Shown here: piece after piece, positions 9,796 to 49,403 of the stretch
How the letters are laid out: each line of letters begins with the position of its first letter
How positions within the stretch are numbered: position 1 is the stretch's first letter
Virus record (IMG/VR): IMGVR_UViG_3300035034_002381
Coordinates: 1 to 64,000 of that record
Length of the DNA stretch: 64,000 bases
Strand: one strand, 5' to 3'
DNA from: a virus
Lineage: Duplodnaviria; Heunggongvirae; Uroviricota; Caudoviricetes
Notes under the pieces: model-generated
Database searches by the model: none
Seen by the model: the letters and a program-made list of their open reading frames with translations, nothing else
What the model was told of the DNA's origin: nothing
Translations under genes and position numbers: made by a program

Positions 9796-9796
9796 C

Positions 9797-10781: not shown

Positions 10782-10787
10782 CTAAAT

Positions 10788-10899: not shown

Positions 10900-10904
10900 C
10901 AAAT

Positions 10905-10978
<74 letters not shown>

Positions 10979-10983
10979 CTATC

Positions 10984-12508: not shown

Positions 12509-12512
12509 TAAT

Positions 12513-26562: not shown

Positions 26563-26973
26563 ATGAAAGCCTTTACTTATGTTATAGATATTGATGACAC
26601 TATCAATATTACCGATAGAGATGAAAATAATATAGGACTGTATTCTCAGTCTCGGCCGATACTTAAAGTTATCAATAAAATTCGAAGACTTAAAAAAGAA
26701 GGCCACAAAATCATACTTTTTACTGCTAGAGGTATGCGTACATTTAATAATGATGTCAAAAAAATCGAAGATTTTCATAGAGAAACACTCGTTAAATGGT
26801 TAAATGACCATGAAGTCCCTTATGACGAACTACAGTTCGGTAAACCATGGGGCCCCCATGTAATATATGTCGATGATCGTGCTGTTACTATTAACCAATT
26901 TGTTTTGGGTGGTCCCGAAAATCACAGAAGTTATACACACATTAACAAAACAGTTATAAATGATGAATTATAA
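26563..26973 (+). CDS. HAD-superfamily phosphatase
   Basis: motif I VIDIDDTI, motif II ILFTARG, motif III/IV K...YVDDR. Confidence 0.65.
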   Translation: MKAFTYVIDIDDTINITDRDENNIGLYSQSRPILKVINKIRRLKKEGHKIILFTARGMRTFNNDVKKIEDFHRETLVKWLNDHEVPYDELQFGKPWGPHVIYVDDRAVTINQFVLGGPENHRSYTHINKTVINDEL

Positions 26974-28660: not shown

Positions 28661-28670
28661 AAAACATACT

Positions 28671-28949
28671 ATGAGCAAAGATTTAGAAAAAGCTAGTGAG
28701 ACACTAGAAGAAACATTGACAGATATCCAAAAGGTGGCAGCTGCTAATTTTTATGATATTGTACAAATTAGTTTAGCCGATAAAGAAGGTAAAGTAGTTG
28801 GTAAAGCTTCTATGAAATATGAAGATATTTTAGCAATGACTAAGATGCATACACAAGATTCTTCACACGTTGTAGGAATGTTATTTCATGCAGTCGAATC
28901 AGAAACTCGTAACAAATTACGAGAAGAAAAAGAAAATGAAGCCAAATGA
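28671..28949 (+). CDS. hypothetical protein
   Basis: start trimmed to MSKDLEK to avoid a 100-nt overlap with the previous gene. Confidence 0.55.
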   Translation: MSKDLEKASETLEETLTDIQKVAAANFYDIVQISLADKEGKVVGKASMKYEDILAMTKMHTQDSSHVVGMLFHAVESETRNKLREEKENEAK

Positions 28950-29134
28950 TTTTTAAAGTAAGAGTAGAAGAAAAGAGCATAGAAGATGTTATAGAACTTA
29001 TTGAAACAGGAGAAGGGAAAAAAGGTCTCCAATTTGATCTATATAATGAAAAACCATATTTTTCACATGTAGAAATTTTCGTTAATACTGATGATTTCTA
29101 CACATTAAAGGATTATTTAAATGAACAAACCTAA
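28946..29134 (+). CDS. small hypothetical protein
   Basis: 62-aa ORF, ATGA overlap. Confidence 0.5.
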   Translation: MIFKVRVEEKSIEDVIELIETGEGKKGLQFDLYNEKPYFSHVEIFVNTDDFYTLKDYLNEQT

Positions 29135-31064: not shown

Positions 31065-32362
31065 TGTACATTATAAAAAACAATAAACTTGAATCTACTG
31101 ATAATATCGATTTATTTTTTAATGAGATAAATGTTGGACAACATATTGCTAAATATGGATATTTCGAAAGTGACCTTATTAATTGGTTAAAGCTTACATA
31201 TAAAAATAATGATAAAATCTTTTTAGATTTAGGAGCGCACATAGGTTCATATTCAATAGAATTAGCAGAAAATTTTCATTCAGTTCATTCATTTGAACCT
31301 AATCCAACAGTCTATAATCATTTATGTGCTAATGTTGCATTAAAGAGATTATCAAATAGGGTATTTCCACACAGAGTTGCATTATCGGATAATAAATCTA
31401 AACAGCCATATTATGAGAGATCCAAAGATGGTGGAGGTAATGGAATTGAAGTTGTAAGAGAGAACGATAAGCACTCATTCTTTGTAGAATCTAAATGTTT
31501 AGATGATTATTCTTTCGATAAAGAAATCGGTTTGATTAAAATTGATATCGAAGGTCATGAGTATAAAGCTATTTTGGGTGCATATGAAACTTTGAAAAAC
31601 TCATATTTCCCACCTATAATTTTCGAATCTTGGGCGCAAAATACACACCCAGAATATTCACAAGAAATACTTTTAGAAATTCGTGATAAAACATTTGATG
31701 TATTAAAGGATTATGGATACACTGTTAAATCCATAAGTGGATATAATGAAATGTTTATTGCTGTTCAAGAGCGTGAAAAATCTCAAGAAGATATTATTGT
31801 TGAAGGTCTTTTGACAGATAAGTTAGACGTATGGCTTAACTCACCTGGAGGGACTCGAAGCAATTATATAGCCGATGTTCTAGAAAAAAGTAATTTAAGA
31901 GTGAGAAACGAATCCTGGTATAAGTATGGTTGTCATTGGACTTCTCCTTTATTTGAAAGGGAATTTAAAACTACAAGATTGTTTTGCTACACTAGCGATA
32001 TCGGACTCGCATTGACAAGTCAGTTAAATGCCAATACTATTGATAAACTGAATTTTGCAGATTTTTATAATGAACCATGGGATTTATATCGATGGATACA
32101 AAATATTAAAAAACAAGTGATTAACTGGTCGGATCCTGGCGTATTCTTTTTAAATACCGACTATTTAAATGATAAAGATATTCAGTCTGAATTTAAAACT
32201 CTTACTGGAGATAGTTTAGACATATCAGATTTCAGACTTGACCGTAAATCTAAAAAATTACATCCTGCATTAATACAATACATGGATGAGATTAATGAGA
32301 TTAATGAGTTATTAGCAAAATTACCTAATGCCGGTTTTGGCGGAGAAGTTGATGAAGGTTAA
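31064..32362 (+). CDS. FkbM-family methyltransferase with extra C-terminal domain
   Basis: DLGAHIGSYSIELAE...VHSFEPNPTVYNHLCANV...KIDIEGHE. Confidence 0.6.
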   Translation: MYIIKNNKLESTDNIDLFFNEINVGQHIAKYGYFESDLINWLKLTYKNNDKIFLDLGAHIGSYSIELAENFHSVHSFEPNPTVYNHLCANVALKRLSNRVFPHRVALSDNKSKQPYYERSKDGGGNGIEVVRENDKHSFFVESKCLDDYSFDKEIGLIKIDIEGHEYKAILGAYETLKNSYFPPIIFESWAQNTHPEYSQEILLEIRDKTFDVLKDYGYTVKSISGYNEMFIAVQEREKSQEDIIVEGLLTDKLDVWLNSPGGTRSNYIADVLEKSNLRVRNESWYKYGCHWTSPLFEREFKTTRLFCYTSDIGLALTSQLNANTIDKLNFADFYNEPWDLYRWIQNIKKQVINWSDPGVFFLNTDYLNDKDIQSEFKTLTGDSLDISDFRLDRKSKKLHPALIQYMDEINEINELLAKLPNAGFGGEVDEG

Positions 32363-34122: not shown

Positions 34123-35022
34123 ATGATATCAGAAGAAAAATTTCCCGATGGACAAATTAATTTTAAAGCAAATACAGAGGACATCAAAAGTCTTTTAACA
34201 CCACCATACATTTTATCAAATGATAATGCGATAAATTTTACAATTGATCTAAGTAACTGGGATAAATTTCAAACTTTGTTGGCAGCCAATGCAAAATTTA
34301 GACAAACGCACAAACAAATTAATTTACATATAGGTTATCTTTTTGGTTCAAGAAGTGACCGTAAATTTGAACATGACGGAATTAACTATTTTCGTGATGT
34401 AATTGCTAAAACAATCAATGATCAAAATTTCAACAAAGTTACTGTATTTGATCCACACTCACTTGCAGTAGAAAATGCAATTAATAATTGTGAGAGTATT
34501 CATCCGTTCCCACAAATCAATCACCATTTTTTAAATATGGTTGGAAATTTAGATTTATCTGAATATGAAATTGTTATAGCGTCTCCAGACCTTGGGGCAT
34601 ACAAAAAAGTCTTTGGAATTTTTGCTAAATTTTCCGAAAAATATCCAAACATACATTTTAATTTTATTTCCGCAAATAAAATTCGTAGTCTGTCTGGTGA
34701 TATTTCTATGGTTTTAAATCCACCATATAAAGAATTTGACAAATCAAAAAAACGAATTCTATATTTAATTGATGATATTTGTGATGGCGGGAGGACCTTT
34801 ATAGAATTTGCTAAACTTCTTAACGAAGATTTTGAGAAAAAGTATCTATATGTATCACATGGAATATTTTCTAAAGGTCTTGATCCATTATTAGAACATT
34901 TCGATAAAATTTTTACTACAAACAGTATTTCGAATACTTATATCAAATATCTAACAAACGATAATACCATTCTAAATTCTAACATTCTTTTTACCACATT
35001 TATTTCGCAACGCAATGAATAA
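34123..35022 (+). CDS. ribose-phosphate pyrophosphokinase (Prs)-like enzyme; candidate ADPR-pyrophosphate synthetase (Adps) of NARP1
   Basis: 299 aa; VFDPHSLAVENAI resembles the Prs DLHA loop, and YLIDDICDGGRTF is a type I PRPP-binding loop. Confidence 0.6.
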   Translation: MISEEKFPDGQINFKANTEDIKSLLTPPYILSNDNAINFTIDLSNWDKFQTLLAANAKFRQTHKQINLHIGYLFGSRSDRKFEHDGINYFRDVIAKTINDQNFNKVTVFDPHSLAVENAINNCESIHPFPQINHHFLNMVGNLDLSEYEIVIASPDLGAYKKVFGIFAKFSEKYPNIHFNFISANKIRSLSGDISMVLNPPYKEFDKSKKRILYLIDDICDGGRTFIEFAKLLNEDFEKKYLYVSHGIFSKGLDPLLEHFDKIFTTNSISNTYIKYLTNDNTILNSNILFTTFISQRNE

Positions 35023-35989
35023 AAAAGCAACAATTCTTCTTGGACTGCCATTAGCAGGCAAGTCGACTTATATAGGAAACAGAATAGAATATGGTGATTG
35101 GTCAGACACAGGATTAGTTTTAGTATCTGCAGATGATCTTAAAGAAAATCATGAAGATTATGATCCCGACCATGCGTATAAAATTCATGAGTGGTCAGTT
35201 AAAGAGGCCGAAAGGCAAATGAAAGAATACTCAGAATTTGGATCAAAACACATTATCATGGACGGTGGTGGCATTAACAATTCATATACTCGTAGAATTA
35301 TGTCTGATCTACGTTTAAAAGGTTATGAAATTGAACTTATACATATTAAAACGCCGCTCCAAGTTTGTCTTCTTAGAAATGAGAAGCGGGTCCGCAAAGT
35401 TCCAGTGCATGATATTGTAACAAAGGCAGCTCGAGAACGTAAACAATATGAGATACTTAAAGATGTTGTAGATAGTGTTACTATAGTTCCATATTTCACA
35501 AACAAACATATTTTTATAGATATGGATGGAGTTATTGCGGGACAGTCTGTCTTGCCAGAATTTGAAGGAAAAATAGATTTTGTTAATAGCGAAATTTTTA
35601 CTATTTTACCACCTGTTCATCAAGTTATTGATAAACTTAATAGTCTTGATTCTGAAAAACATACACTTTATATTTTATCAGCAACACCGAATTCATATTC
35701 GTATACTGAAAAACATGATTGGTTAGATAAACATTTTAACATACCAAGAGAACGCAGATTTTTTGTAAATGCTGGAAAGCATAAAGCAGAAATGTTAGAA
35801 AATCTAAGAATAAAACTCAAAACTGATAAACGTGATGTCACTCTGATTGAAGATACGCACTCGACACTTAAAGATGTTAGAGACCTTAGAATGAATCCAA
35901 TACATGTATCTGAATTTTTATCAAATGATTTTTTGCGAGATGAAGAATTATATGACTATAAATATTACGAAAACCCAAATAATAAATAA
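35015..35989 (+). CDS. P-loop kinase fused to HAD phosphatase (T4 polynucleotide kinase/phosphatase-like architecture)
   Basis: GLPLAGKST Walker A; IMDGGGINNSYTRR and RNEKRVRKVPVHDI parallel T4 Pnk ISDTNLNPERR and RNSKRGTKAVPIDV; C-terminal FIDMDGVIA is a DxDG HAD motif. Confidence 0.5.
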   Translation: MNKKATILLGLPLAGKSTYIGNRIEYGDWSDTGLVLVSADDLKENHEDYDPDHAYKIHEWSVKEAERQMKEYSEFGSKHIIMDGGGINNSYTRRIMSDLRLKGYEIELIHIKTPLQVCLLRNEKRVRKVPVHDIVTKAARERKQYEILKDVVDSVTIVPYFTNKHIFIDMDGVIAGQSVLPEFEGKIDFVNSEIFTILPPVHQVIDKLNSLDSEKHTLYILSATPNSYSYTEKHDWLDKHFNIPRERRFFVNAGKHKAEMLENLRIKLKTDKRDVTLIEDTHSTLKDVRDLRMNPIHVSEFLSNDFLRDEELYDYKYYENPNNK

Positions 35990-35995
35990 AAAGAT

Positions 35996-37714
35996 ATGAG
36001 AAAAATGAACGCTTTCTTAGCAACCGATGGTTATAAAACAGGCCATCACATAATGTATCCTGAAGGAACTATTGAGGTATATGATAATTTAACACCCCGC
36101 AGTTTTAAATACGCAATCAACAATGTCGAGTATGTTATTGCTGTGGGTCAAAAAATGGCAGTCACAGAAATCAACGATATGTTTAACGAAACATTTTTTA
36201 GACATGAAGATGTTGAAAGACTTGCCTTTCATTTATTTAGACAAGGATTACCTGAACAAAAAGCTAAAGAAACCGCAAGAAATAAAATTAAAGCCGAAGT
36301 ATGTAGTGAAATCAAAAAGGAGTTTTCGTTATATCTAGATATGAAATATGATGTTTCGCATATTGAAAGACTTTGGGATTTAGGATATCTTCCTGTAAAA
36401 ATAAAAGCTTTACCAGAAGGTGTAAAGGTCCCAATAAAGGTTCCTGTACTTACAATTGTAAATACTTTGCCAGATTTTTTCTGGTTACCTAATTTCTTGG
36501 AGACTATTATTTCTAATTTGTTATGGAAACCTATGACATCTGCAACTATTGCGTACGAGTTCAAGAAAACTTTGACTAAATGGGCAATGAAAACTGATAG
36601 CAAAAATGTTTCTATTGTAGAATTTCAGGCACATGATTTTTCAATGCGAGGAATGGATTCTATTTATGCTGCTGCTTCATCAGGTTTAGGTCATGCATCA
36701 TCATTCCTTGGAAGTGATACAATACCAGTAATTCATGCAGCAAGATATTATTATGGTGATCAAGGTCCTATTATACATTCTGTAAATGCTACAGAACACA
36801 GTGTCATGTGTGCTGGAGAAAAAGATAGTGAAATTGAAACATTCAGACGATTATTGCGTCTTTTCCCGACAGGAATCTTATCAGTAGTTTCTGATACTTG
36901 GGATTTATGGAAAGTGATAGTAAAATATCTTCCTGAATTAAAGGACGAAATTCTAAAAAGAGCAGGAAAACTGGTTATTAGACCTGACTCTGGAAATCCT
37001 GTTGATATTATTTGTGGTTTTGATCATAATAGATTTGATACACACGAAGAAGCAGAAAAATATTATAGAACTTATGGAATAAAAGATCCAAAATACTATG
37101 TAAAAAACGAATTCTTTACTGTAATTTCACATTCAGGCAACAATTTTAAATATGCAGATTTAGAAGAGACTCCTGCTGATAAAGGAGTCGTGCAATTATT
37201 ATGGGAAATCTTTGGAGGGCAAATAAATGAAGATGGATTCAAAGTTTTAAATGAACACATTGGCGCAATTTATGGTGATAGTATTAATTTCGAAAGAGCA
37301 AATCAGATTTGTGAGAGACTAGCCAGCAAAGGATTTGCGACTACAAACGTTGTACTTGGAATAGGATCCTTCACATATCAGTATAACACTCGTGATAACC
37401 ATGGATTTGCCGTTAAAGCTACTCATATAACTATTCAACATCCTGATGGAAAAATGGAAGAAAGAGACATATTCAAAGACCCACTAACATCGGTAGGTAC
37501 AAATAAAACTAGTGCTAAAGGATTTATTCAAGTACTTAAAGAAAATGGAGAGTATATTATGAGAGATCAGGTTAGTAGAGAACAAGAAGAAAATTCTTTA
37601 CTTACAATGATTTATTTAGATGGTAAAGTTCTTTCCGAAGACACACTCAAAAGTATTCGTAGAAATGTGAATAACGAATTGGCTGTTGAATTAGGATTAT
37701 ATGAAGTAGCATAA
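35996..37714 (+). CDS. nicotinamide phosphoribosyltransferase (NAMPT/NadV)-like enzyme; candidate Namat of NARP1
   Basis: N-terminus LATDGYKTGHHIMYPEGT matches the NAMPT TDSYK..H pattern; 572 aa, longer than typical NAMPT. Confidence 0.65.
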   Translation: MRKMNAFLATDGYKTGHHIMYPEGTIEVYDNLTPRSFKYAINNVEYVIAVGQKMAVTEINDMFNETFFRHEDVERLAFHLFRQGLPEQKAKETARNKIKAEVCSEIKKEFSLYLDMKYDVSHIERLWDLGYLPVKIKALPEGVKVPIKVPVLTIVNTLPDFFWLPNFLETIISNLLWKPMTSATIAYEFKKTLTKWAMKTDSKNVSIVEFQAHDFSMRGMDSIYAAASSGLGHASSFLGSDTIPVIHAARYYYGDQGPIIHSVNATEHSVMCAGEKDSEIETFRRLLRLFPTGILSVVSDTWDLWKVIVKYLPELKDEILKRAGKLVIRPDSGNPVDIICGFDHNRFDTHEEAEKYYRTYGIKDPKYYVKNEFFTVISHSGNNFKYADLEETPADKGVVQLLWEIFGGQINEDGFKVLNEHIGAIYGDSINFERANQICERLASKGFATTNVVLGIGSFTYQYNTRDNHGFAVKATHITIQHPDGKMEERDIFKDPLTSVGTNKTSAKGFIQVLKENGEYIMRDQVSREQEENSLLTMIYLDGKVLSEDTLKSIRRNVNNELAVELGLYEVA

Positions 37715-37790: not shown

Positions 37791-39107
37791 ATGAAAAGAT
37801 CTGGTATTAAAGTAGCGGTATTTCCCATGGGTTCAATTATCCGATTTAGGAAAGATGGAATCAAAAGATCGTTTGGTCGTTTAGAATATTATAATTTGAT
37901 TTGGGCGTTGGCCAGAAATCCAAGTATTTCGGAAATTTGGCTTTTACAAGTTTCTGATTGGGAACAATTGACTGATGATGAAAAAATTGATTTTGATCCT
38001 AGAAAAGTTATTCGTAACATTTATGCGGAATTTAAAGTAGACAAACCTAATAGTAAAAAACAAGAATCTTACGCTGATCTTTGGAACAAAATTTCTCATC
38101 TTAAGCAACCTGATTTTGCAATTGTATTTTCTACACAAGGTCTTACTAGAATTTCTATACCAAATATTATACCTAAAGTAAAAAATCCTGAAGAAAAAGC
38201 TAAATGTTTAGAAATGACAATACGCTATTGTTCTTCACAAATGTATTATCTAAACAATTCAGAAATTCCATATTTTTTGGTAGTTAATGATGGCAGATTT
38301 TTGTATACTAATACACATACAAAATATCTGGATATGTTTAATTTACCCAAAGAAATCATGGGATTTTACAAAAATGATGATTATATACTTCATCATTATG
38401 ATAAAATGCCGGATGATGGTGGCAAAATGACTACTGATGTTGTTAAGTTATCATACAGTAAAATGATTTGGCTTAATAATATCAGTGAAAAAATCATAGA
38501 CCCTGCCAACATAGAGAAAACTGAAAAGTTTTCTATTGTAGCTATGCAGGCAGCTTATGGTAAAGATAAACATGATCCTAGATATTCTATTCTAAAGGAG
38601 TGGTTTTTAGACGTAGATGGAAATGAAGATGTTTCGATTTATGGTAAATGGGGAGAATCTTATGTTAAAGATTATCAACATTTTAAAGGCTTAAAGCCAC
38701 ATACTGAAATTGATGAAATTTTCAAGAAAACTAGGTACACATTATTGATTCCAACAGAACCTTTATGGGTAACTACGAAAATATGTGAGATGTTGAAATT
38801 GGGTGTTGTCCCGTTTTTGCATCCTAGTTATGATGAAAAAAATCTATCATTTGGAGAGGATTCATTTTTTAGAGTAAAAAATCCGGAAGATTTAAAAAAG
38901 AAGATTTCATTTTTAGAAAAAAATCCAGATAAAAGAATCAAGCTCATACAAAAGGCTCAAGAAAAATATATGGAAGGTGTCACAAACGGAACTTGTGTCG
39001 TCGACGCAATTAATCCATATCTTCAACGGGCTAATATTGATGTAGAATTGCAACATGGATTTAGTGATGAACTAATTCGTAAGCGCAAAGTTAAAAAATT
39101 ATTTTAA
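37791..39107 (+). CDS. GT-B-like glycosyltransferase, possibly T4 beta-glucosyltransferase-like (tentative)
   Basis: 438 aa; C-terminal layout FSIVAMQAAYGKDKHDPRY...YTLLIPTEPLWVTTKICEMLKLGVVPFL...FFRVKNPEDLKKKISFLEKNP resembles the T4 BGT C-terminal half from memory. Confidence 0.4.
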   Translation: MKRSGIKVAVFPMGSIIRFRKDGIKRSFGRLEYYNLIWALARNPSISEIWLLQVSDWEQLTDDEKIDFDPRKVIRNIYAEFKVDKPNSKKQESYADLWNKISHLKQPDFAIVFSTQGLTRISIPNIIPKVKNPEEKAKCLEMTIRYCSSQMYYLNNSEIPYFLVVNDGRFLYTNTHTKYLDMFNLPKEIMGFYKNDDYILHHYDKMPDDGGKMTTDVVKLSYSKMIWLNNISEKIIDPANIEKTEKFSIVAMQAAYGKDKHDPRYSILKEWFLDVDGNEDVSIYGKWGESYVKDYQHFKGLKPHTEIDEIFKKTRYTLLIPTEPLWVTTKICEMLKLGVVPFLHPSYDEKNLSFGEDSFFRVKNPEDLKKKISFLEKNPDKRIKLIQKAQEKYMEGVTNGTCVVDAINPYLQRANIDVELQHGFSDELIRKRKVKKLF

Positions 39108-39110
39108 ATT

Positions 39111-40319
39111 ATGAAGAATAAATTTTCTAAGGATGGACATTGGAGATTCGGTACTATAGTTCCATTAATCGGGGGAATGACCATATCCAACCAACAAGCA
39201 ACCGGAGATAATCCGGACTTTTTAATATCTTATCCAGCGTTTGCAGGCAATGATTCTCATTGTGTTAATCATTTTAAAGATACCCCATATTATGTAGTCG
39301 ACCCAGAAACTAATGAATTACCTGAAGACGATACTTTTCAAAATGTAGATTTTGTGTCTGCAGTGTGCCCATGTGCAGGACTTTCTATGTTAAATACTTC
39401 TAAGAAAAGAGGATCTGATGCAGAAATGAATAATTGGATGTATAAATCTGCAGAATTAGTTTTAGAACAAATTAAACCCAAAGTTTTTTGGGGGGAGAAT
39501 GCACCAGGTCTATATACAAAATCTGGTGAAGGTGTAGTCAAAAAATTGAGAGAAATTGCTGAAAAGAATGGTTATGTACTTTCATTAGTCAAAACTAATA
39601 CCTTTTTACATGGTATACCACAACATAGAACTAGAACTTTTTACTTTTTTTGGCAAGGTAAACATGCGCCAATACTGAATTATACCGAGCGGGATGCACC
39701 AACTCTTAAAGAATATCTAGATCAAATTCCTGAAAATGCTTCTATGCAAGATGAAAAATTCGGCTTAGAAAGTATGAATAGTCTTTGGTTTAAATTCTTA
39801 AAAGATCAAAACATAAAAATTTCAGATGTACAAAAAAGTACGTGTAAATCAATTATGGATTATTGTGTAGCCGAAAAATTGATGCCGAAAATGGTTGATT
39901 GGGGTGAAGAAAATGGATATGATAAAATGGTCAGGACTGCTAAGCATATTCTACATAAACAATCTATGGGTAAAGGTTGGTGGGACGCTACACCATTAGT
40001 ACCAACAGATACTATTAATGCGCTGATTAGTAAGAATGCTGGAATTGTCCACCCGAACGGAGAAAGACCAATTAATACCCGAGAAGCTTTATGGTTAATG
40101 GGATTACCACATGATTTTACTATGGTCGATTATGACAATAGAAAAAATAGCAATCACATTTGCCAAAACGTACCGGTAACCACTGCAAAAGACTGGACAT
40201 TCGAAGTGATGAAATTTATCAATAAAGATATTGAAAAAATTGCAACGCCGTTTCTAAAACAAAACAATATCAAACAAAGAATAGATTTACAAGAAAATAA
40301 ATCCAAAGCACTTTTTTAA
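39111..40319 (+). CDS. DNA (cytosine-5) methyltransferase-family enzyme
   Basis: motif IV AVCPCAGLS, motif VI FWGENAPGL, motif VIII GIPQHRTRTFYF. Confidence 0.75.
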   Translation: MKNKFSKDGHWRFGTIVPLIGGMTISNQQATGDNPDFLISYPAFAGNDSHCVNHFKDTPYYVVDPETNELPEDDTFQNVDFVSAVCPCAGLSMLNTSKKRGSDAEMNNWMYKSAELVLEQIKPKVFWGENAPGLYTKSGEGVVKKLREIAEKNGYVLSLVKTNTFLHGIPQHRTRTFYFFWQGKHAPILNYTERDAPTLKEYLDQIPENASMQDEKFGLESMNSLWFKFLKDQNIKISDVQKSTCKSIMDYCVAEKLMPKMVDWGEENGYDKMVRTAKHILHKQSMGKGWWDATPLVPTDTINALISKNAGIVHPNGERPINTREALWLMGLPHDFTMVDYDNRKNSNHICQNVPVTTAKDWTFEVMKFINKDIEKIATPFLKQNNIKQRIDLQENKSKALF

Positions 40320-40321
40320 AT

Positions 40322-41761
40322 ATGAAACCTTTATTTGTAATAGAAGACGAAATACAAAATAAGTCTAATATATTCGAACTAATTAATCCACAAAAATTAG
40401 ATCCGAATAAAAAGACTATATTAATAATCACATACAAAAATTTTGCTGGTGATTTTGACTATATTTATGGATTTAATCACAAGATTATTGAATTATTAAA
40501 AGATCAATATAATATTGTATTTGCTGGAAAGGAAATTAAAAAGAATGTCATCGATATAGATAATTTCTATTTAATTGATATGAAAGGTTATACGAGTTTA
40601 AATCAGAATAGATTTAAGCGCAAAAAAGAAGATCCTAACAGTAACCAAATTAACAGAAATATTTTATGGGAAGAATTTGAATCTGCGTTCGGTGATTTAG
40701 AAATTGATTTAATTTTTTATGCGACACCAGAGTATGCGATTTTACCTCATGGTAAATCTTATCATAAAGATTTCAAAGAAATACAAAACGAAATTCATGA
40801 TTATGTAGGCGCAGATACTAAAAAGATTCAGCGTATTAACGAAATTATGTACGATATCTATGAAAATTATGATACCCATGCATCTATTTTAATGTTTTCT
40901 GCCTGGCATAAAAATGTCATGATGAACTTGCCGGTTTTTCTAAAAGAAAGAAATTCGTTTAAAGTCATTGCATTTTCTATTGATCCTGCAAATACTTATC
41001 GATATTTGGAACACCATGGAATAGAATGTACCAATTTTTATTTTGAAGAAGATAAACGTGGTACTCGCAATTTCGAAAAATTTCCAATAGCACATCTTCA
41101 ACATTTAATTTTTGAAAACAACGAAAATCCTACAGAAAAATATAGTTTAGAAAAAACTACAGATTTTTTCTTTATGGGAACGATTATTCAAGAAAAGGGA
41201 AGTAGAATGCAGATGTGGTATGAATTTTTATCAGATTTAAAATTAGACGATAAATCTAATTTTTGGATCCCAATTAAACATAATGGAATTTACCGAACTA
41301 AAAAACAAGAAACTAGTGGTCATACCAAAAAGGGTTTACAGATTATTGATGAAAAATTCACAGACATTAAAAATGCTATCATAAATCATCCCAATTTTTC
41401 TGGACATTTATTACCATCAGAAGTCAAAAAACATATTGTAGCTTATAAATATTCATTAGTATTGCGATGTGTTTCTATTTATGATAGTCTAAATTTTAGA
41501 CCTATTTATTATGTTTATTTAAACATTCTTCCATTTTTAGATCATATGTATGATCCAGATTATTTACAGATTCCTAAGAAATTTCAAGACAAATTAGCAG
41601 TATCTAATTCACGAGATATCGAGGATAGAATCAAATATTATAATCAAAATCCAAAAGAAAGAATTCAGTTATTAAAAGAAATGAGAGAGTTTTTTGAAAT
41701 AGACGAGTTTTTAGAAGATTGGAAAAACATAACACTAAAACATATAGATCATGCTAAATAA
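40322..41761 (+). CDS. paralogous GT-B-like glycosyltransferase (tentative)
   Basis: 479 aa; FFFMGTIIQEKGSR...KYSLVLRCVSIYDSLNFRPIYYVYLNILPFL...AVSNSRDIEDRIKYYNQNP has the same layout as 37791. Confidence 0.35.
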   Translation: MKPLFVIEDEIQNKSNIFELINPQKLDPNKKTILIITYKNFAGDFDYIYGFNHKIIELLKDQYNIVFAGKEIKKNVIDIDNFYLIDMKGYTSLNQNRFKRKKEDPNSNQINRNILWEEFESAFGDLEIDLIFYATPEYAILPHGKSYHKDFKEIQNEIHDYVGADTKKIQRINEIMYDIYENYDTHASILMFSAWHKNVMMNLPVFLKERNSFKVIAFSIDPANTYRYLEHHGIECTNFYFEEDKRGTRNFEKFPIAHLQHLIFENNENPTEKYSLEKTTDFFFMGTIIQEKGSRMQMWYEFLSDLKLDDKSNFWIPIKHNGIYRTKKQETSGHTKKGLQIIDEKFTDIKNAIINHPNFSGHLLPSEVKKHIVAYKYSLVLRCVSIYDSLNFRPIYYVYLNILPFLDHMYDPDYLQIPKKFQDKLAVSNSRDIEDRIKYYNQNPKERIQLLKEMREFFEIDEFLEDWKNITLKHIDHAK

Positions 41762-42398
41762 GATATTTAAAAGTTTGAGTAATTCTGAAAATGAAGCATT
41801 ATGTGTACAAAGAACTAATCTTTTATTCGAAGCATTAGATATTATAGAAAAACATAATGGGAAAGCTTGGTTAGATTGTGGTACTTTGTTAGGTGCGTAT
41901 AGAGATGGTGAATATATTCCATGGGACGTCGATGTAGATTTAGGAATTAATATCGAGGATGTTACTGAGGAAATGCTAAATGATTTCAGAGATAAATATA
42001 ATATACGACACGATAATGGAAACTTAGATCAATACAAATTTTGCTCATTTTATAAGAGAGATGAAAATGGTGATAATTACAAATTTAGAAGATGTAATTT
42101 ATGGATTGATTTACATATGTACTATCCAAATTATGATGGTACAAGAACTATGACAATTACTACAGGAAAAATTAGAGCACCTAAAAAAATCTTTCCAGCA
42201 CCTGCTGAATGTATCGAGAATTTAGAACAAATTGAATGGCAAGGTAGAAAAGTAAATATTCCTAGTAAAACTGTAAAATATTTAGAACAATGGTATGGAT
42301 ATGATTGGGACGTACCTAACGATAAATGGAAAATGTCTCCGAGTTGGTACGATAATCCAACAAATGACAAAATTATTCAAGGTAAAACCCTCTTTTAA
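41751..42398 (+). CDS. LicD-family phosphotransferase (phosphocholine/phospho-alditol transferase family)
   Basis: KAWLDCGTLLGAYRDGEYIPWDVDVDLGI matches the LicD signature W.d.GTLLGa.R...IPWDdD.D. Confidence 0.75.
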   Translation: MLNKIFKSLSNSENEALCVQRTNLLFEALDIIEKHNGKAWLDCGTLLGAYRDGEYIPWDVDVDLGINIEDVTEEMLNDFRDKYNIRHDNGNLDQYKFCSFYKRDENGDNYKFRRCNLWIDLHMYYPNYDGTRTMTITTGKIRAPKKIFPAPAECIENLEQIEWQGRKVNIPSKTVKYLEQWYGYDWDVPNDKWKMSPSWYDNPTNDKIIQGKTLF

Positions 42399-42416
42399 AC
42401 AAAATAAACAAAACAA

Positions 42417-43178
42417 ATGCATATATTAAATGAATATTTTGACAAGATTTATATTACCAACCTCGACTCGGCCAAAGATAGATATGAAAGATTATCTAAA
42501 GAACTGGATTCATTTGGCGTTGTTTATGAAAGATTCAAAGCATTGACTCCAGATGATGCAAGAAAGGTATTTGCTGAAAAAGGCCTAAAGATTCCTAAAA
42601 GTAATAGTGGAGCTCTTGGTTGCGCAACTTCACATTATATATGCTGTCAACAGGCTGCGAAAAATGGACTTAAAAGAATTTTGATTCTTGAAGATGATGC
42701 AAGAATAACCGATATAGATTTTAATCAAGAGACTCAAAATTTAGTTGAACAAATAAGAAAAACCGACTGGTTTTATCTAAAGCTTGGTTATAATATCACT
42801 AACCAGATGTTAGACGAAAATTTTGAGTTTCATAGAGTTTCAGAAAATTTGTTTAATCTTTCAAAAAGTTCTATGACCACCGCTATAGCTTTCAATATCG
42901 AAAAAATCGTAGAGGATGAGAATGCTTCCACAGTTTTTATTTCTGATCACGCATTAGAAAATAGTAAATTGAATATTCATATTGACCATAGATTGTTTAT
43001 GATGTGTAACGAATTCGGAATTCTACAATGCCATTATTATCCAGCAATATTTACTCAGACTGATGGGTATTCATACATAGGAAAAGAAGAAAGGAAATTC
43101 TCTAATATTGATAAAAGAACAAACAGAATATTCAAAGAGCATATACAATCTTCTAGCTCAACAAAAAAATTATTTTAA
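42417..43178 (+). CDS. glycosyltransferase family 25 (LgtB/Lic2B-like)
   Basis: FDKIYITNLDSAKDRYERL..., GALGCATSHY and ILILEDDARI. Confidence 0.65.
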   Translation: MHILNEYFDKIYITNLDSAKDRYERLSKELDSFGVVYERFKALTPDDARKVFAEKGLKIPKSNSGALGCATSHYICCQQAAKNGLKRILILEDDARITDIDFNQETQNLVEQIRKTDWFYLKLGYNITNQMLDENFEFHRVSENLFNLSKSSMTTAIAFNIEKIVEDENASTVFISDHALENSKLNIHIDHRLFMMCNEFGILQCHYYPAIFTQTDGYSYIGKEERKFSNIDKRTNRIFKEHIQSSSSTKKLF

Positions 43179-43196
43179 ACAAAGAAAATAGAAAAT

Positions 43197-43976
43197 ATGG
43201 AATTTTTAAATATACTACAATCGGAATTACAATCGGGATTTATTTACATACCTAATAGAGGCAATGCTGGGGATGTTGTCATTCAACAATCTACTATTAA
43301 ATTTTTTGAAAAAAATAATCTAAACTTCGAATTAGGAAAAAACACTACAACTTATGTTGGGGAAAATCTAGTTTATGGTGGGGGTGGAAATTTGATTGGA
43401 AAATACCAACCGGCTAAAAAATTCATAAAATTAAATGCGGAAAAAAATCATATAATGATATTACCGCATACAATTAAGAACAGCGAAAAGTCTTTAAATA
43501 TGCTGAATAAGGATTCTATTGTTTTTTGCAGAGAAAGAATATCTCATGAATATGTTAGTAAATTTATTGAAAAATGTTATTTACATAAAGATATGGCTTT
43601 TCATCTAGATTTAGAATCTTATAAAAAGGAATCTAAATATGAAGTAGGAAATATATTTAGAATGGATGTCGAATCTTCTAATAACGTTAAAAAAATTCCA
43701 TCTAATAATGTGGATATATCCAGTGTTTTTAATCGTAGAAATCAGCATACAAATTTAGAAGTAGCTCAAGCTGTATTTGATGATTTTGTTAATTATATAG
43801 CAGATTTCGAAATTGTAAACACAGATAGATTACATATTGCAATTATTGCTGCAATATTGGGAAAAAATGTTAATCTTTATCCTAACTCATATTATAAAAA
43901 TAAAGCCGTATATGACTATACATTATCGTTAGAATATCCCAACGTCAATTTTATCGATGAAGTAAAATATAGATGA
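43197..43976 (+). CDS. polysaccharide pyruvyl transferase family protein
   Basis: PNRGNAGDVVIQ, VYGGGGNL and NTDRLHIAIIAAILGKNV. Confidence 0.6.
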   Translation: MEFLNILQSELQSGFIYIPNRGNAGDVVIQQSTIKFFEKNNLNFELGKNTTTYVGENLVYGGGGNLIGKYQPAKKFIKLNAEKNHIMILPHTIKNSEKSLNMLNKDSIVFCRERISHEYVSKFIEKCYLHKDMAFHLDLESYKKESKYEVGNIFRMDVESSNNVKKIPSNNVDISSVFNRRNQHTNLEVAQAVFDDFVNYIADFEIVNTDRLHIAIIAAILGKNVNLYPNSYYKNKAVYDYTLSLEYPNVNFIDEVKYR

Positions 43977-43983
43977 TGCATTT

Positions 43984-44013
43984 TAAAACTTTTTATTAAT
44001 GTATTAATATAAA
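43984..44013 (+). promoter_or_regulatory. TAAAACTTT ... TAATATAAA promoter-like motif
   Basis: upstream of 44031. Confidence 0.45.
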
Positions 44014-44030
44014 CTTTAATATACTTTTTT

Positions 44031-44603
44031 ATGAAAACAATTATTATTGAAGGATGTGATAGAGTAGGAAAAGATACAGTTTGTAATGGAATAAAACTGA
44101 CTGCGGACTGTTTACTTTATCGACATTGGCTTAAACCTAAAGGTCAAACTAATGATGAAAGAGTTAATTATCAAAAGACAACATTTAAAAAGGAATTTGA
44201 TTTACGTAAATCTTTTTTGGATGATTGGTATCTTAATGATAATGATAAAAATTCTGATTTAATTCTTTGGAACAGAAGTCATATTGGAGAATATGTTTAT
44301 GGAAAACTATATCGAGACTATGATCCAAATTGGATTTATAATCTGGAAAATCTTTATAATTTTTCTGATAATAACATTTATTTGGTAATGTTATATGCAG
44401 ATCCAGATTTTTTGTGTGAGAATGATGATGGACATTCATTCAGTTCTGATATTGAAGGTAAAACGCAAGAAATCAATTTATTCCACGAAGCAGTGGATAA
44501 AAGTCTAATACCAAATAAAATAAAAATAAAAGTAAATGACGGAAAACGTTACCGAGACAGAAAAGAAATTAGAAAAGAAATTTTTGATCGAATCTTCAAT
44601 TAA
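44031..44603 (+). CDS. deoxynucleoside monophosphate kinase (T4 gp1-like)
   Basis: IIIEGCDRVGKDT resembles T4 gp1 FLSGVKRSGKDT; 190 aa; directly upstream of the hydroxymethylase. Confidence 0.6.
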   Translation: MKTIIIEGCDRVGKDTVCNGIKLTADCLLYRHWLKPKGQTNDERVNYQKTTFKKEFDLRKSFLDDWYLNDNDKNSDLILWNRSHIGEYVYGKLYRDYDPNWIYNLENLYNFSDNNIYLVMLYADPDFLCENDDGHSFSSDIEGKTQEINLFHEAVDKSLIPNKIKIKVNDGKRYRDRKEIRKEIFDRIFN

Positions 44604-45468
44604 TCAAAGATTCCAAGAACTTATTGAGCAGATTGAGATATCTGCAGAAATGAATGGTACAGTTAATCCACGAGATTTACTGGTTAAAGAATCACTACTT
44701 ACAGGATTTTCTATTGATCCAAGATATCCATGTATAGATTTCGAAGCAAGAAAATTCAACTATAAATATTTTGCTGCTGAGGTTGCATGGTATTTATTAA
44801 AAGATAATACAACAGAATTTATTTCTAAGTTTTCCAATTTCTGGAATAATATTACAAATCCAGATGGAACTATTAATTCTAATTATGGAAAAATTCTATT
44901 AACACAAATAAACAATACTATCACACCAATAGCATGGGTAGTAAATTCTTTAAGAAAAGATAAAAATTCTAGACAAGCAATTGCATATATTGGAAGTAAG
45001 GATTTTCAATATGAAGGAAATAAAGATTTTGTGTGTACTCAATATATTTTGTTTTTTATTCGAAACGATGAACTTCATATGAAAGTTCAAATGAGATCAA
45101 ACGATATTTTTTATGGATTATCTTATGATGCTCCTTGGTTTTCGTTAGTTCATCAAAATACATTTCTTGAACTAAAAGAATTATATCCAGAATTAAAAAT
45201 TGGAAAGTATTTTCATTTTTCTGATAACTCACATTTTTATCAAAGACATTTTAGTAAAGCTCAAGAAGTCTTACAAGAAGAGGTTAAGCTTGGTCCTAAA
45301 ATTGTTCTTGAGAAACCTTTATGGAGAACTTATGAAAATGGTAATTGCGTTATTACTGAAACGGCTAGTAATTATATAGATTTTTTCAATAAAAATTTAG
45401 GTGATTTATCCGAGTATAAAAACGAACAATTTAAAGAAGTTCTCAAAAAAATCGTAAAAATTAACTAA
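44536..45468 (+). CDS. deoxycytidylate hydroxymethylase (T4 gp42-like; thymidylate synthase superfamily)
   Basis: GTINSNYG, NSRQAIAYI, DFVCTQYILFFIRN (catalytic Cys), MRSNDIFYGLSYDAPW (Asp where ThyA has Asn) and NSHFYQRHF parallel T4 gp42 blocks; start uncertain (68-nt overlap; alternative ATG at 44650). Confidence 0.75.
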   Translation: MTENVTETEKKLEKKFLIESSINQRFQELIEQIEISAEMNGTVNPRDLLVKESLLTGFSIDPRYPCIDFEARKFNYKYFAAEVAWYLLKDNTTEFISKFSNFWNNITNPDGTINSNYGKILLTQINNTITPIAWVVNSLRKDKNSRQAIAYIGSKDFQYEGNKDFVCTQYILFFIRNDELHMKVQMRSNDIFYGLSYDAPWFSLVHQNTFLELKELYPELKIGKYFHFSDNSHFYQRHFSKAQEVLQEEVKLGPKIVLEKPLWRTYENGNCVITETASNYIDFFNKNLGDLSEYKNEQFKEVLKKIVKIN

Positions 45469-45532
45469 ACAAAAATTTTATAGTACCAATATTTTTTATT
45501 ATATTTGTACTGTAATTAAAAACAACACATAC

Positions 45533-46681
45533 ATGAATAATCAAAAAACAATCCAGGCGATTGAGGATAAATTCTCCGCCGCAATTGAACCGCTGAAAAA
45601 GCAAACTGTTCGTAAAGAAATTAATTTTAGAGACATTGAAATCAATGATTCTAAATTATATTTTCAAGATACACCACTTTCAAAAATTGCACAAAGAAAA
45701 ATTTTGAATGAGTTGCAAGTCAAAAGTGGATTTATCAATTATTCTGAAAAATTGGAAGATCGTGACTGGGAAATGATTTCTAAAAAACTTAAAGATGCAC
45801 AAGGTGATCGGGTTGTTTATGGAAATTTTGAAACCGACTCAGAAAACAAAGAAATTATCCAAAACGTTTTTGGTAAAAAACAAGACAAACCTGCTGCCGA
45901 TCCTGGAGATTATGATTTTTTCATAAACTCAATTACAGAGTCTTTAGGAAAATCTGAAATTGAATATGATTTGGGATCATTTAATTTTGATCAATACCGA
46001 AGAATTTTTGATTTATCCCTGCTAAACAGAGAATCAAGTATTGATATCTTTAAGGATGGAAAAGATATTTGGGATGGCGGTCATTCATTCACATTCAATA
46101 CTTCACAATTTTCTACTTCACCATTTTTCGAAAGATTGGTTTGTACTAATGGAATGAGAAGTCGCCAAAACATGTTTAGCTCTTCAATTAACCAAAGTAA
46201 ATTCAATGTTAAGAAAATATCCAGATTGATTGAAAAAAATATTTTGGATGGTACGGAATCTTTGAATGAAGCAATCATGATTCAAGCTAATCACTTGATC
46301 AAAAACAACATCTCAATTAATGAATTTGATATTTTCCGCAAGAAATTCATTACATCCGACGAAGAAAAACAACACCTTTTCGAAAAAATTCGTAATCAAT
46401 ATTTTGATGATAAGCCTTTCTATAAAGCTTATGGAGAAAATATTGCGGAAAAATCGAAAAAATGGAGATCAACCGCAAATTCAGGAATCAATGCATATCA
46501 ATTTTTTAATATGCTTACCTGGTTAGGTTCTCACCAAAAAGAAACTGGATTGTCTGACACAGTTTCTAGAGATATCCAACTAAGCGCCTCTAATCTGTTT
46601 TTCAAAGAAAATCTTGATTTGGAAGATGTGGCTGGAAATGTTAACGTGGATTATCCTGTTAATGATATTGCGTTCGCATAA
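45533..46681 (+). CDS. DUF932-like protein
   Basis: FFERLVCTNGM motif; 382 aa. Confidence 0.45.
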   Translation: MNNQKTIQAIEDKFSAAIEPLKKQTVRKEINFRDIEINDSKLYFQDTPLSKIAQRKILNELQVKSGFINYSEKLEDRDWEMISKKLKDAQGDRVVYGNFETDSENKEIIQNVFGKKQDKPAADPGDYDFFINSITESLGKSEIEYDLGSFNFDQYRRIFDLSLLNRESSIDIFKDGKDIWDGGHSFTFNTSQFSTSPFFERLVCTNGMRSRQNMFSSSINQSKFNVKKISRLIEKNILDGTESLNEAIMIQANHLIKNNISINEFDIFRKKFITSDEEKQHLFEKIRNQYFDDKPFYKAYGENIAEKSKKWRSTANSGINAYQFFNMLTWLGSHQKETGLSDTVSRDIQLSASNLFFKENLDLEDVAGNVNVDYPVNDIAFA

Positions 46682-46718
46682 GATTTTCTTTTCATAATTA
46701 ATCCATTCTGTGGATTAA

Positions 46719-46749
46719 AGCCCGAGCAAATTAATGCTCGGGCTTTTTT
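46719..46749 (+). terminator. intrinsic terminator
   Basis: agcccgagc-aaattaat-gctcgggct followed by a T-run; a second small hairpin lies just upstream. Confidence 0.85.
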
Positions 46750-48273: not shown

Positions 48274-48876
48274 ATGCAAGGACAATTATACCAATGGCAA
48301 AAAGGTGAATACATTGAACAATATTCTAAAGCTATCGATGTAGAAGAAGAAGGCGAGATGTCATTTCTGATTTTTGAAGATGGTAGAAGAATTAACATCG
48401 AACTTATTGAAGAATTTCTTATACCAGTAAATTCAGAAGACGAAGGTTATATTATCAGAGAAGAAGTTATAGATGATTTAGTAGAAATGAAAGGTAAAGA
48501 CGGTGGGATATATACTGTTCCTGGACCAGATCATGGTAAGCGTCGGATCACGAAAAAACCTAAAACCAAACAAGCCAAACCCATCATCACATCGACACCT
48601 AAACAACAAATTAAAGAGGAACCTAAAAATCTTTATCCTAATGATCCTATAATAGCACTCTTAGAAAAATCAAAAAAGGTCACCAAACCTATTAATATAA
48701 CATTACGTTTAGATATTATTACACAAGGTACATACGATCTGATTATTGACAATTTTGAAGATAGTGAAGAAAGCATTGTTGAATATTTGATTTCTTCTAT
48801 CGATAAAAAGGAATTAGTGGAAAGTATAAAGGTTCAACTTAAAGGTTCGTATTCGAAAACACCAATCACAGTATGA
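48274..48876 (+). CDS. hypothetical protein
   Basis: start trimmed to MQGQLYQ to remove the overlap with 47931-48263. Confidence 0.6.
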   Translation: MQGQLYQWQKGEYIEQYSKAIDVEEEGEMSFLIFEDGRRINIELIEEFLIPVNSEDEGYIIREEVIDDLVEMKGKDGGIYTVPGPDHGKRRITKKPKTKQAKPIITSTPKQQIKEEPKNLYPNDPIIALLEKSKKVTKPINITLRLDIITQGTYDLIIDNFEDSEESIVEYLISSIDKKELVESIKVQLKGSYSKTPITV

Positions 48877-49403
48877 AAGATAAAAATTTAAAATATGAAT
48901 CGAAGAGATTTAACGTTGTTAAAAAACAGGGTAGAGTTAAAATAGATTATAAAAAAATGACAGTTGGCGTTTTACCATATACTATTAAAGATGGACTCCT
49001 AGACAAAATTGGTATTCTGCATGAATGGAATCCTACAAGACAAGATGATTTTTGTCACACGATAATCACTGGTACTGTAGACCCAGAAGATACTGATTAT
49101 CTTTTTGCGGCAAAAAGAGAATTACTTGAGGAAGGTGGCATTAAAGATACTAATGACGATAATTGGATATTTTTAGGTTCATTTTACGTTTCAAAAGGCA
49201 GTAATGAAATGTGTCACACCTTTGCAGTAGATGTTACAGATCTAGAAATTGGTGAAGCAGTAGGAGATGGTTCTGATGCTGAAGAAAAATCTGAATTTTC
49301 TTTAATGGATTCAGGAAATGCAATTACAATTACTAATGAAAGTTTAGTCTTAGCCTCATTTCTAAGACTGTTTGACTTCTTTTATCAAAAGAATAATGGG
49401 TAA
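48873..49403 (+). CDS. Nudix hydrolase
   Basis: Nudix box GTVDPEDTDYLFAAKRELLEEGGI (G-x5-E-x7-REUxEExGU). Confidence 0.8.
   Translation: MKDKNLKYESKRFNVVKKQGRVKIDYKKMTVGVLPYTIKDGLLDKIGILHEWNPTRQDDFCHTIITGTVDPEDTDYLFAAKRELLEEGGIKDTNDDNWIFLGSFYVSKGSNEMCHTFAVDVTDLEIGEAVGDGSDAEEKSEFSLMDSGNAITITNESLVLASFLRLFDFFYQKNNG

Follow-up and report, generated by a model that had tools for sequence, protein, structure and literature searches.

Does a phage related to the Prevotella Lak megaphages modify its cytosine before replication, and do the sugar-transfer enzymes encoded beside the modifying genes act on the product? The question is raised by a 64,000-nucleotide stretch of virus DNA (Caudoviricetes; positions 1 to 64,000 of IMG/VR record IMGVR_UViG_3300035034_002381; hereafter the window), in which two overlapping genes at 44031-45468 encode a putative nucleotide kinase and a protein of thymidylate synthase (TS) fold. 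A preliminary description, made from the sequence alone, had taken the two for counterparts of phage T4 gp1 and gp42, and so for the source of a genome substituted with 5-hydroxymethylcytosine (hmC). The reading that we favour, and regard as likely, is that the two genes form a pre-replicative cytosine-modification pair and that the glycosyltransferases (GTs) encoded next to them most likely decorate the hydroxymethyl groups; the kinase belongs to a family other than that of gp1.

A TS homologue with the active-site signature of T4 gp42

The two open reading frames (ORFs) overlap on the same strand with the kinase upstream (Table 1), as first described, and every motif then quoted is present in the translations: EGCDRVGKDT at kinase residues 7-16; GTINSNYG (111-118), NSRQAIAYI (144-152), DFVCTQY (164-170), MRSNDIFYGLSYDAPW (186-201) and NSHFYQRHF (231-239) in the predicted hydroxymethylase. 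The overlap is 68 nucleotides (nt) if translation of the latter starts at the first ATG (44536) and 20 nt if it starts at TTG 44584, the start implied by a 294-amino-acid (aa) database copy (P0001; 100% identical, on a 64,373-bp ENA contig).

The downstream ORF matches Pfam Thymidylat_synt (PF00303; E 6.3e-18, 65.3 bits, cut-off 24.3 bits) and four PHROG 'thymidylate synthase' families (best 1.2e-34). Against the NCBIfam ThyA equivalogs all of its scores lie far under the cut-offs (at best 58.6 against 327 bits), so it is not an ordinary ThyA. Among proteins of solved structure it comes closest in sequence to the deoxycytidine monophosphate (dCMP) hydroxymethylase of T4 (1b49, 1.4e-14), ahead of the CMP hydroxymethylase MilA (1.2e-10) and E. 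coli ThyA (2.7e-9), which bears out the resemblance to gp42 noted earlier.

To place the specificity residues we aligned the query with E. coli ThyA, T4 gp42, RB69 gp48 and relatives (local-pair MAFFT) and compared the 12 positions that lie within 6 Å of the nucleotide C5 in E. coli ThyA, as listed in PMC13326640. At E. coli (Ec) positions 80, 94, 142, 143, 146, 147, 165, 167, 168, 169, 173 and 177 the query has W, Y, K, D, C, T, M, S, N, D, G and D; T4 gp42 has the same residue at 12/12 of these, and the query thus follows gp42, not ThyA. RB69 gp48, experimentally a 5-hydroxy-dCMP (5hodCMP) synthase and our positive control, showed D169N and W80A in the same alignment.

The residues to which published rules attach are conserved in 120/120 homologues of the query: Asp198 (Ec N177/T4 D179), the marker of cytosine rather than uracil; Asp164 (Ec L143/T4 D145), the marker of hydroxymethyl rather than methyl transfer; Asp190 (Ec D169/T4 D171); and Cys167 (Ec C146/T4 C148) with the general base Glu82 (Ec E58/T4 E60). 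Two of these had been singled out in the preliminary description, the catalytic Cys of DFVCTQY and the Asp standing where ThyA has Asn, and HMMER pairwise and MAFFT alignments agree in pairing both with the expected ThyA and gp42 residues. N177D goes with a preference for cytosine and L143D/E with a hydroxymethyl rather than a methyl product, and D169N marks newly found flavin-dependent 5-hydroxy-dCMP synthases (PMC13326640); with D169 retained, the query is not one of these. Ser167 and Arg126' go with deoxyribose substrates and are replaced by Ala and Lys in the CMP-specific MilA (PMC5175136). The query has the deoxyribose-type Ser188 (Ec S167) and Arg146 (Ec R126), both invariant in its homologues, and a CMP hydroxymethylase of MilA type was rejected on these diagnostic residues.

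Beyond the TS fold, the catalytic Cys and Glu and the 12 C5-surrounding residues (T4 D145, T149, D171 and D179 among them), the query has in common with T4 gp42 (PDB 1b49/1b5e/6a9b) the blocks NSNYG, DF(V/M)CT, MRSND and H.Y.RHF. It differs in being ~27% identical over the core, in its extensions of ~45 residues at the N-terminus and ~70 at the C-terminus, in having a partner from a different kinase family, and in the presence nearby of a C5 methylase instead of T4 beta-gt/imm. By every published specificity rule that could be tested on it, the ORF is very probably a dCMP hydroxymethylase of T4 gp42 type.

A Tmk/YorR-like kinase tied to cytosine-directed TS homologues

Thymidylate kinases of type I classically have the P-loop EGxDRxGK(S/T)T, and it is to this segment that the resemblance of the upstream protein to gp1, proposed in the preliminary description, turned out to be confined. 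When a profile of 37 family members was aligned with T4 gp1 (hhalign), 33 N-terminal columns aligned (MKLIFLSGVKRSGKDT against MKTIIIEGCDRVGKDT) and none beyond; the gp1 structure 1dek is not among the top 50 Foldseek PDB matches of the kinase model, and a phmmer search of PDB chains with the ORF gave no match at E<=10. Homology to gp1 (PDB 1dek/1del) was rejected on these grounds. The two proteins are alike in being P-loop nucleoside-monophosphate kinases and in the role proposed for the window kinase, phosphorylation of hm-dCMP; they differ in size (190 aa against 241 aa) and have no homology past the P-loop.

The kinase is instead a Tmk/YorR-like nucleotide kinase, as judged from its modelled fold and profile matches. 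The ORF matches PHROG 761 'thymidylate kinase' (1.5e-8), and an AlphaFold (AF2) model built on the family alignment (pLDDT 93.2, pTM 0.89) finds in the PDB, by Foldseek, first B. subtilis YorR (2axp, E 4.4e-6; 3kb2), thymidylate kinases and dCK, with PPK2 also in the top 50; in a viral structure library it finds Tmk-type kinases, including Bacillus phage G gp315 and a Rhizobium phage P10VF protein. Its family aligns with RB69 gp45 over 111 columns (hhalign, 95% probability, E 4e-8). RB69 gp45 carries the annotation 'thymidylate kinase' and is encoded within that phage's cytosine-arabinosylation cluster; like DLP3 gp78 and RL38J1 gp214 it is a small Tmk/YorR-like 'nucleotide kinase' beside a TS homologue (PMC13326640, Table 1 therein). 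These cluster kinases, rather than gp1, are therefore the proper comparison. They share with the window kinase the fold class and the position beside a cytosine-directed TS homologue, and DLP3 gp78 has the same top structural match, YorR 3kb2. Unlike what we propose here, the RB69, DLP3 and RL38J1 clusters produce 5-hydroxy-dC, and their phages own in addition a true gp1 orthologue, which is the kinase experimentally shown to be active on 5hodCMP (PMC13326640); no gp1 orthologue was seen in the 64-kb window.

What carries the assignment of the kinase is its linkage. A scan of IMG/VR with the kinase alignment yielded 61 viral loci. In 53 of them a TS-family ORF lies no farther than 10 kb from the kinase, always on the same strand and in 29 cases adjacent to it or overlapping; several of the 8 loci lacking a TS ORF end just downstream of the kinase. 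The Asp143/Asp169/Asp177/Cys146 signature is present in 52/53 linked TS ORFs and Asp177 in 53/53, the sole exception (locus L058) having Leu143 with Asp177, the predicted dCMP-methylase pattern. The pair also overlaps in the uncultured huge phage LR756500 (462 kb), and in the Ralstonia jumbo phage RsoM2USA kinase and hydroxymethylase, both annotated as hypothetical, lie ~1 kb apart. There is thus a specific tie between this kinase family and cytosine-directed TS homologues, and it is the strongest support for the role we predict for the window kinase, phosphorylation of 5-substituted dCMP, in this case hm-dCMP.

The proposed pathway

From the folds of the two proteins and the active-site signature we infer the following chemistry. 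Cys167 would attack C6 of dCMP, methylene-tetrahydrofolate would give one carbon to C5, and water let in by Asp164 would quench the exocyclic methylene to yield 5-hydroxymethyl-dCMP. The translationally coupled Tmk-fold kinase would convert this to the diphosphate and a host nucleoside-diphosphate kinase to hm-dCTP, which the phage polymerase would incorporate; after replication, GTs would decorate the hydroxymethyl groups in the DNA, in the manner of the T4 alpha- and beta-glucosyltransferases. That hmC or a derivative is present in the phage DNA seems to us probable.

Genes around the pair

Almost all window genes lie on the + strand. Those from 37791 to 46681 are tightly packed, none of the gaps exceeding 54 nt, and are followed by a terminator-like hairpin, the sole strong site of this kind on the + strand between 37000 and 47500 (Table 1). 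The pair thus sits at the 3' end of one transcription unit, 37791-46746.

Table 1. Positions in the window of the kinase-hydroxymethylase pair and of associated features
Feature	Coordinates	Strand	Details
Sugar-1-P nucleotidyltransferase, GT2-TPR protein and FkbM methyltransferase (upstream sugar genes)	26960-32362 (span)	+	566 aa, 647 aa and 432 aa; Pfam NTP_transferase 6.2e-17, Glycos_transf_2 3.7e-11, Methyltransf_21 1.3e-15
GT-B-like glycosyltransferase ('GT1-like')	37791-39107	+	438 aa; Pfam Glyco_trans_1_2 2.7e-6
C5 cytosine DNA methyltransferase homologue	39111-40319	+	Pfam PF00145 8.5e-24
Second GT-B-like protein ('u479')	40322-41761	+	479 aa; C-terminal-domain paralogue of the GT1-like protein
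LicD-family phospho-alcohol (e.g. phosphocholine/ribitol-phosphate) transferase	41751-42398	+	Pfam LicD 9.8e-17; accessory, variable slot
GT-A glycosyltransferase, family 25 (GT25)	42417-43178	+	Pfam Glyco_transf_25 1.9e-17; PHROG 2835 'glucosyltransferase' 1.9e-13
Polysaccharide pyruvyl transferase homologue	43197-43976	+	Pfam PS_pyruv_trans 3.6e-13; accessory, variable slot
Putative nucleotide kinase	44031-44603	+	190 aa; stop TAA at 44601-44603
Putative dCMP hydroxymethylase (TS fold)	44536-45468	+	310 aa from ATG 44536; 294 aa from TTG 44584
Conserved protein	45533-46681	+	382 aa; after the hydroxymethylase, apparently co-transcribed; weak DUF932 match, E 0.021
Intrinsic-terminator-like hairpin	46717-46746	+	12-bp stem with 7 G-C pairs, then T run

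The C5 methylase keeps the PC, ENxPG, QxRxR and QNVP motifs and is apparently intact. The u479 protein that follows it has no Pfam match of its own at E<=0.01 and, as a profile, none among PDB sequences, and its single-sequence structure model is unusable (pLDDT 35); in its family 9/10 members match Glyco_trans_1_2 (best 1.1e-8), and hhalign joins it to the GT1-like family (97% probability, E 1.4e-10). The idea that u479 might be a TET/5mYOX protein adjoining the methylase was dropped on the strength of these family matches, which make it a GT-B-like paralogue. The GT25 protein gives a match, weak and below cut-off, to Pfam TAGT, the TET-associated DNA glycosyltransferases (E 8.4e-4); a homologue search aimed at a deep alignment found 4 homologues only.

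No window ORF scanned matched TET/2-oxoglutarate dioxygenases (TET_JBP), and tblastn found no match in the window to T4 gp56, gp1 or beta-gt. The arrangement invites comparison with the methyltransferase-5mYOX(TET)-glycosyltransferase clusters described in a virome survey (bioRxiv 10.1101/2023.12.21.572611), which likewise have a C5 methylase, a GT-A and a GT-B beside a 5hmC source; the survey also describes many viral contigs with GTs adjoining ThyS homologues. The window differs in that 5hmC would come from the nucleotide pool, which leaves the C5 methylase without an obvious role, and in its LicD and pyruvyl transferase genes, which do not figure among the neighbour functions listed in the available text of the survey.

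Upstream of the gene string are a pyrimidine-dimer glycosylase, an exonuclease and genes for NAD salvage, the last being, at 34123-37714, those of a PRPP-synthetase-like protein, a fusion of a Zeta/AAA_33 kinase with an NT5C-like 5'-nucleotidase, and a 572-aa nicotinate/nicotinamide phosphoribosyltransferase. Also upstream lie the three sugar genes listed in Table 1, the nucleotidyltransferase among them matching GalU, LicC and RmlA in the PDB. A kinase domain was sought in the C-terminal half of this 566-aa protein, after the architecture of AfhE and RB69 gp52:53, and rejected for want of a family match. Just before these genes are a 139-aa SET-domain protein of lysine-methyltransferase fold (26086-26505; Pfam SET 4.1e-11) and, adjoining it, a PNKP-type HAD phosphatase (26563-26973).

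A hypervariable slot between methylase and kinase

The closest relative, locus L003 (kinase 78% and hydroxymethylase 71% identical), keeps the order GT-B-like protein, methylase, kinase, hydroxymethylase, 382-aa protein. Its methylase-kinase interval contains nothing but a weak DXD glycosyltransferase (284 aa) and an ORF of 97 aa; LicD is missing at the corresponding position. The 382-aa protein of the window and its L003 orthologue, which occupies the corresponding position, are 63% identical; the protein is found in 9 related loci, at varying distances from the pair. More distant relatives (contigs of 92-318 kb, kinase 41-48% identical) usually have the order u479-like, GT1-like, (GT25), methylase, variable slot, kinase, hydroxymethylase.

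The framework genes recur widely. Of the 61 viral loci, 35 have a C5 methylase homologue no more than 10 kb from the kinase; it is immediately upstream of the kinase in L010 (7067-8320), L033 (8745-9953) and L047, and present in two copies in L018 and L005. GT1-like orthologues (41-46% identical) adjoin methylase-kinase-TS in L004, L010, L013, L015, L017 and L023, and all seven IMG/VR loci recovered with the GT1-like family do so, though all are of one lineage. Orthologues of u479 occur in 11 related loci, and GT25 genes stand in the same block in L004, L009, L013, L015 and the P0135 contig.

The methylase-kinase slot itself (40322-43976 in the window; 4532-9953 in L009, 7269-9977 in L018, 9203-9967 in L013, 8641-9961 in L015 and 5190-7968 in L004) is hypervariable, its set of sugar or transfer enzymes changing from one relative to the next: Gly_transf_sug (DXD) transferases, methyltransferases of FkbM or Methyltransf_24 type, a second C5 methylase with an EEP nuclease/phosphatase, and in L009 a cytidylyltransferase-RgpF fusion, a GT2, a GT25 and a NeuB-family nonulosonic-acid synthase. 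No counterpart of the pyruvyl transferase was found in the related loci. Since FkbM and GT2 genes occur inside the slot in relatives, the upstream sugar genes of the window may belong to the same system; this suggests that they are possible suppliers for the same glycan, their membership being uncertain.

Do the sugars go on DNA, and is the base hmC?

The preliminary description had gone on to make hmC the substrate of the many transferases nearby. Here, incorporation of hmC into DNA and the acceptor of the transferases are what we infer, and for some of the GTs the synteny with the pair speaks for such a substrate; the LicD, pyruvyl transferase, GT2 and NTP-transferase proteins could instead serve cell-surface glycans. 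The best-surviving rival builds on the latter: the pair makes hm-dCTP, and the sugar genes remodel a host surface polysaccharide (blocking superinfection, for example) or glycosylate virion proteins, so that the DNA would carry plain, possibly partial, hmC. We take this as a serious contender, if not the outcome we expect. Variable clusters of nucleoside-diphosphate-sugar and GT genes are common in jumbo phages and have been read as modifying surface polysaccharides (PMC7824862); LicD, pyruvyl transferase, RgpF and NeuB are classical enzymes of cell-envelope glycans; according to the virome survey, ~65% of phage GT contigs have no base-modification enzyme nearby (bioRxiv 10.1101/2023.12.21.572611); and the GT-B-like proteins have no significant match to T4 beta-GT. 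What such a role leaves unaccounted for is the position of the variable sugar genes, exactly between methylase and pair, on the same strand and tightly packed, in many diverged relatives; the weak match of GT25 to TET-associated DNA glycosyltransferases and the constant company of the GT1-like family, within its one lineage, also point to DNA. Taking both sides together, we see about an even chance that at least one neighbouring GT acts on DNA, and think it unlikely that LicD or the pyruvyl transferase acts on a DNA-linked glycan.

The remaining rivals concern the enzyme. It could be a dCMP methyltransferase, giving pre-replicative 5-methyl-dC of the kind found in Xanthomonas phage XP12: all cytosine-directed TS homologues have Asp at Ec N177 (PMC13326640), and relatives of the kinase do occur near TS homologues that combine Asp177 with a ThyA-like Leu143 (the DHFR-TS of Lak-A1; L058). 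At L143, H147, Q165 and C168, however, the query has Asp, Thr, Met and Asn, the exact pattern of T4 gp42 and not the ThyA-like one of the putative methylases, and we consider methylation improbable. A flavin-dependent 5-hydroxy-dCMP synthase of the RB69 gp48 or DLP3 gp80 type, with sugars ether-linked to 5-hydroxycytosine, would fit the layout that RB69, DLP3 and RL38J1 have in common with the window, namely a TS homologue with N177D and an acidic residue at 143, a Tmk-like kinase, GTs and a sugar nucleotidyltransferase; but the diagnostic D169N is missing, Asp190 being invariant in the homologues, and the query keeps W80 and Y94, where RB69 gp48 has Ala80 in both alignments and Phe/Tyr94 by alignment, so that we give this reading very little credence. 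An ordinary thymidylate synthase or dUMP hydroxymethylase with a plain dTMP kinase, as automatic annotation ('thymidylate synthase' and 'thymidylate kinase') would have it, is scarcely believable given the low NCBIfam ThyA scores, the replacement of Asn177, Leu143 and His147 by D, D and T, and the fact that Asp at 177 disfavours uracil (PMC13326640, PMC5175136).

Several points weigh against the modification of DNA by this pair and its GTs as we propose it. In the hydroxymethylase family Gln replaces ThyA Arg127 (T4 Arg124), the second Arg of the RR phosphate-binding pair, the sole notable departure of the query from T4 in the residue comparison. The residue rules are themselves correlations drawn from a modest number of characterised enzymes, and the chemistry deduced from them is correspondingly provisional. 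The synteny may stem from common ancestry and not from a common function. Aligned with T4 beta-glucosyltransferase by hhalign, the GT-B-like families are co-linear with it at E 0.1-0.2 and a probability below 1%. The 64-kb window yielded no dCTPase (gp56/MazG), no dCMP deaminase and nothing Alc-like. Finally, the conserved C5 methylase needs an unsubstituted C5 and is hard to reconcile with complete replacement, unless it has another role.

The claim of an hmC-substituted genome accordingly stands in part: the T4-type signature and the coupled kinase speak for hmC, and with no dCTPase, dCMP deaminase or other dC-excluding device in the window, and a C5 methylase that is conserved, complete substitution is not established. 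The absence of a dCTPase is uninformative in itself, the 64-kb contig being part of a probably much larger genome. A NUDIX hydrolase gene ~3.4 kb downstream of the hydroxymethylase (48873-49403) is conserved in L003 (7659-8189), and its product is a candidate dCTP pyrophosphatase, which would supply the hydroxymethylase with dCMP. None of the 4-mer palindromes is avoided in the window (observed/expected 0.80-1.10), a weak sign compatible with a generally protected genome.

Phage type and host

Possession of many tRNA genes is typical of huge phages; the window has 21 of them in three clusters (229-1094, 3901-4355 and 9277-10979), with three tRNA-Met(cat) genes and duplicated Tyr, Ile and Arg(tct) genes. 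Its major capsid protein (19214-21007) is gp23-type (Pfam 4.3e-35) and shares 40-43% identity with its counterparts in LR756500 and the Prevotella Lak megaphages, and a T4-type prohead protease is also present. From the capsid identity the window is, by sequence, a 64-kb fragment of a Lak-related huge phage; no near-identical DNA was found among isolate phages. Specialised TS enzymes for 5hmC can occur in jumbo phages of group 2.2, whose capsids are gp23-type and among which the Lak and Tenacibaculum phages are counted (PMC7824862).

Like the window, the Lak megaphages and LR756500 have a gp23-type capsid, many tRNA genes and a homologue of the kinase. The window reads well in the standard code, unlike Lak-A1 (MK250016; L071), whose kinase ORF is broken by TAG under code 11 and continuous if TAG is sense. 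Lak-A1 encodes a DHFR-TS fusion (5783-7351, minus strand) ~5 kb from the kinase homologue (11962-12588); its TS domain has ThyA-like A, L, C, H and Q at Ec 142/143/146/147/165 and, at N177, Asp (LGLPYDLLSY). This combination of L143 and D177, seen also in L058, is a predicted dCMP-methylase signature, and Lak megaphage DNA may, to judge by these residues, carry pre-replicative 5-methyl-dC.

A Bacteroidota host, as first proposed, is plausible, the pointers to it being the ~40% capsid identity to Prevotella Lak phages and one contig binned in a Bacteroidales metagenome-assembled genome (MAG). The Bacteroidota -7 promoter motif TAnnTTTG is not enriched in the window (92 observed, 96 expected). 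Further contigs with relatives of the kinase come from bins labelled Pacearchaeota, Erysipelotrichaceae and Dehalococcoidia; they are most likely phage sequences that were binned wrongly, and are uninformative on the host. Two single contigs with the kinase family, L080 (JBBACR010000001.1, 425,361 bp; MAG 'Candidatus Pacearchaeota') and L083 (CADBGE010000001.1, 400,076 bp; 'Erysipelotrichaceae'), look like huge-phage genomes mis-binned as cellular.

Elsewhere in the window there are three further genes of note: a 486-aa SPFH/Band-7 protein (1201-2661) and a 665-aa protein with an M43 (pappalysin-type) metallopeptidase domain (12713-14710), both unusual phage cargo, and, after baseplate/tail-like genes at the window end, a 401-aa protein with three S1 RNA-binding domains (62635-63840; Pfam S1 2.3e-21).

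Implications

Pre-replicative modification of cytosine by a TS homologue, a kinase and glycosyltransferases is textbook knowledge for the T-even phages. Since modification of this kind has also been catalogued at scale in viromes (bioRxiv 10.1101/2023.12.21.572611), the pair is a further member of a known pathway. Three aspects were not described in the literature we searched: that Asp177 TS homologues are specifically coupled to a kinase family of Tmk-like rather than gp1-like type, that a conserved C5 methylase belongs to the kinase-hydroxymethylase block, and that Lak-related huge phages have a hypervariable sugar-enzyme slot. A paper on the Jug huge phages is silent on thymidylate synthase, hydroxymethylation and glycosyltransferases.

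A bolder extension, which we offer as speculation with the chances clearly against it, is that Lak-related huge phages have an island in which 5hmC made at the nucleotide level anchors strain-variable, envelope-like glycans on DNA: phospho-linked groups added by LicD, pyruvylated or O-methylated sugars, and nonulosonic acids of the L009 type (NeuB with a CMP-sugar cytidylyltransferase), all from enzymes of the hypervariable slot, with the C5 methylase serving beyond simple protection, for example in marking residual C or in timing modification. The slot is in any case a list of candidate DNA glycan-tailoring enzymes. A Tmk-like kinase adjoining an Asp177 TS homologue offers a simple genomic marker of cytosine-modifying phages that have no gp1 orthologue nearby.

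We know of no Lak-like huge phage in culture. If the favoured reading is true, the modified DNA of these phages would bias library preparation, restriction-based and bisulfite or enzymatic methylation assays, and targeting by CRISPR or restriction. DNA based on hmC is a known anti-restriction strategy, and its range would then extend beyond the T-even coliphages to huge phages of Lak type in gut and environmental microbiomes.

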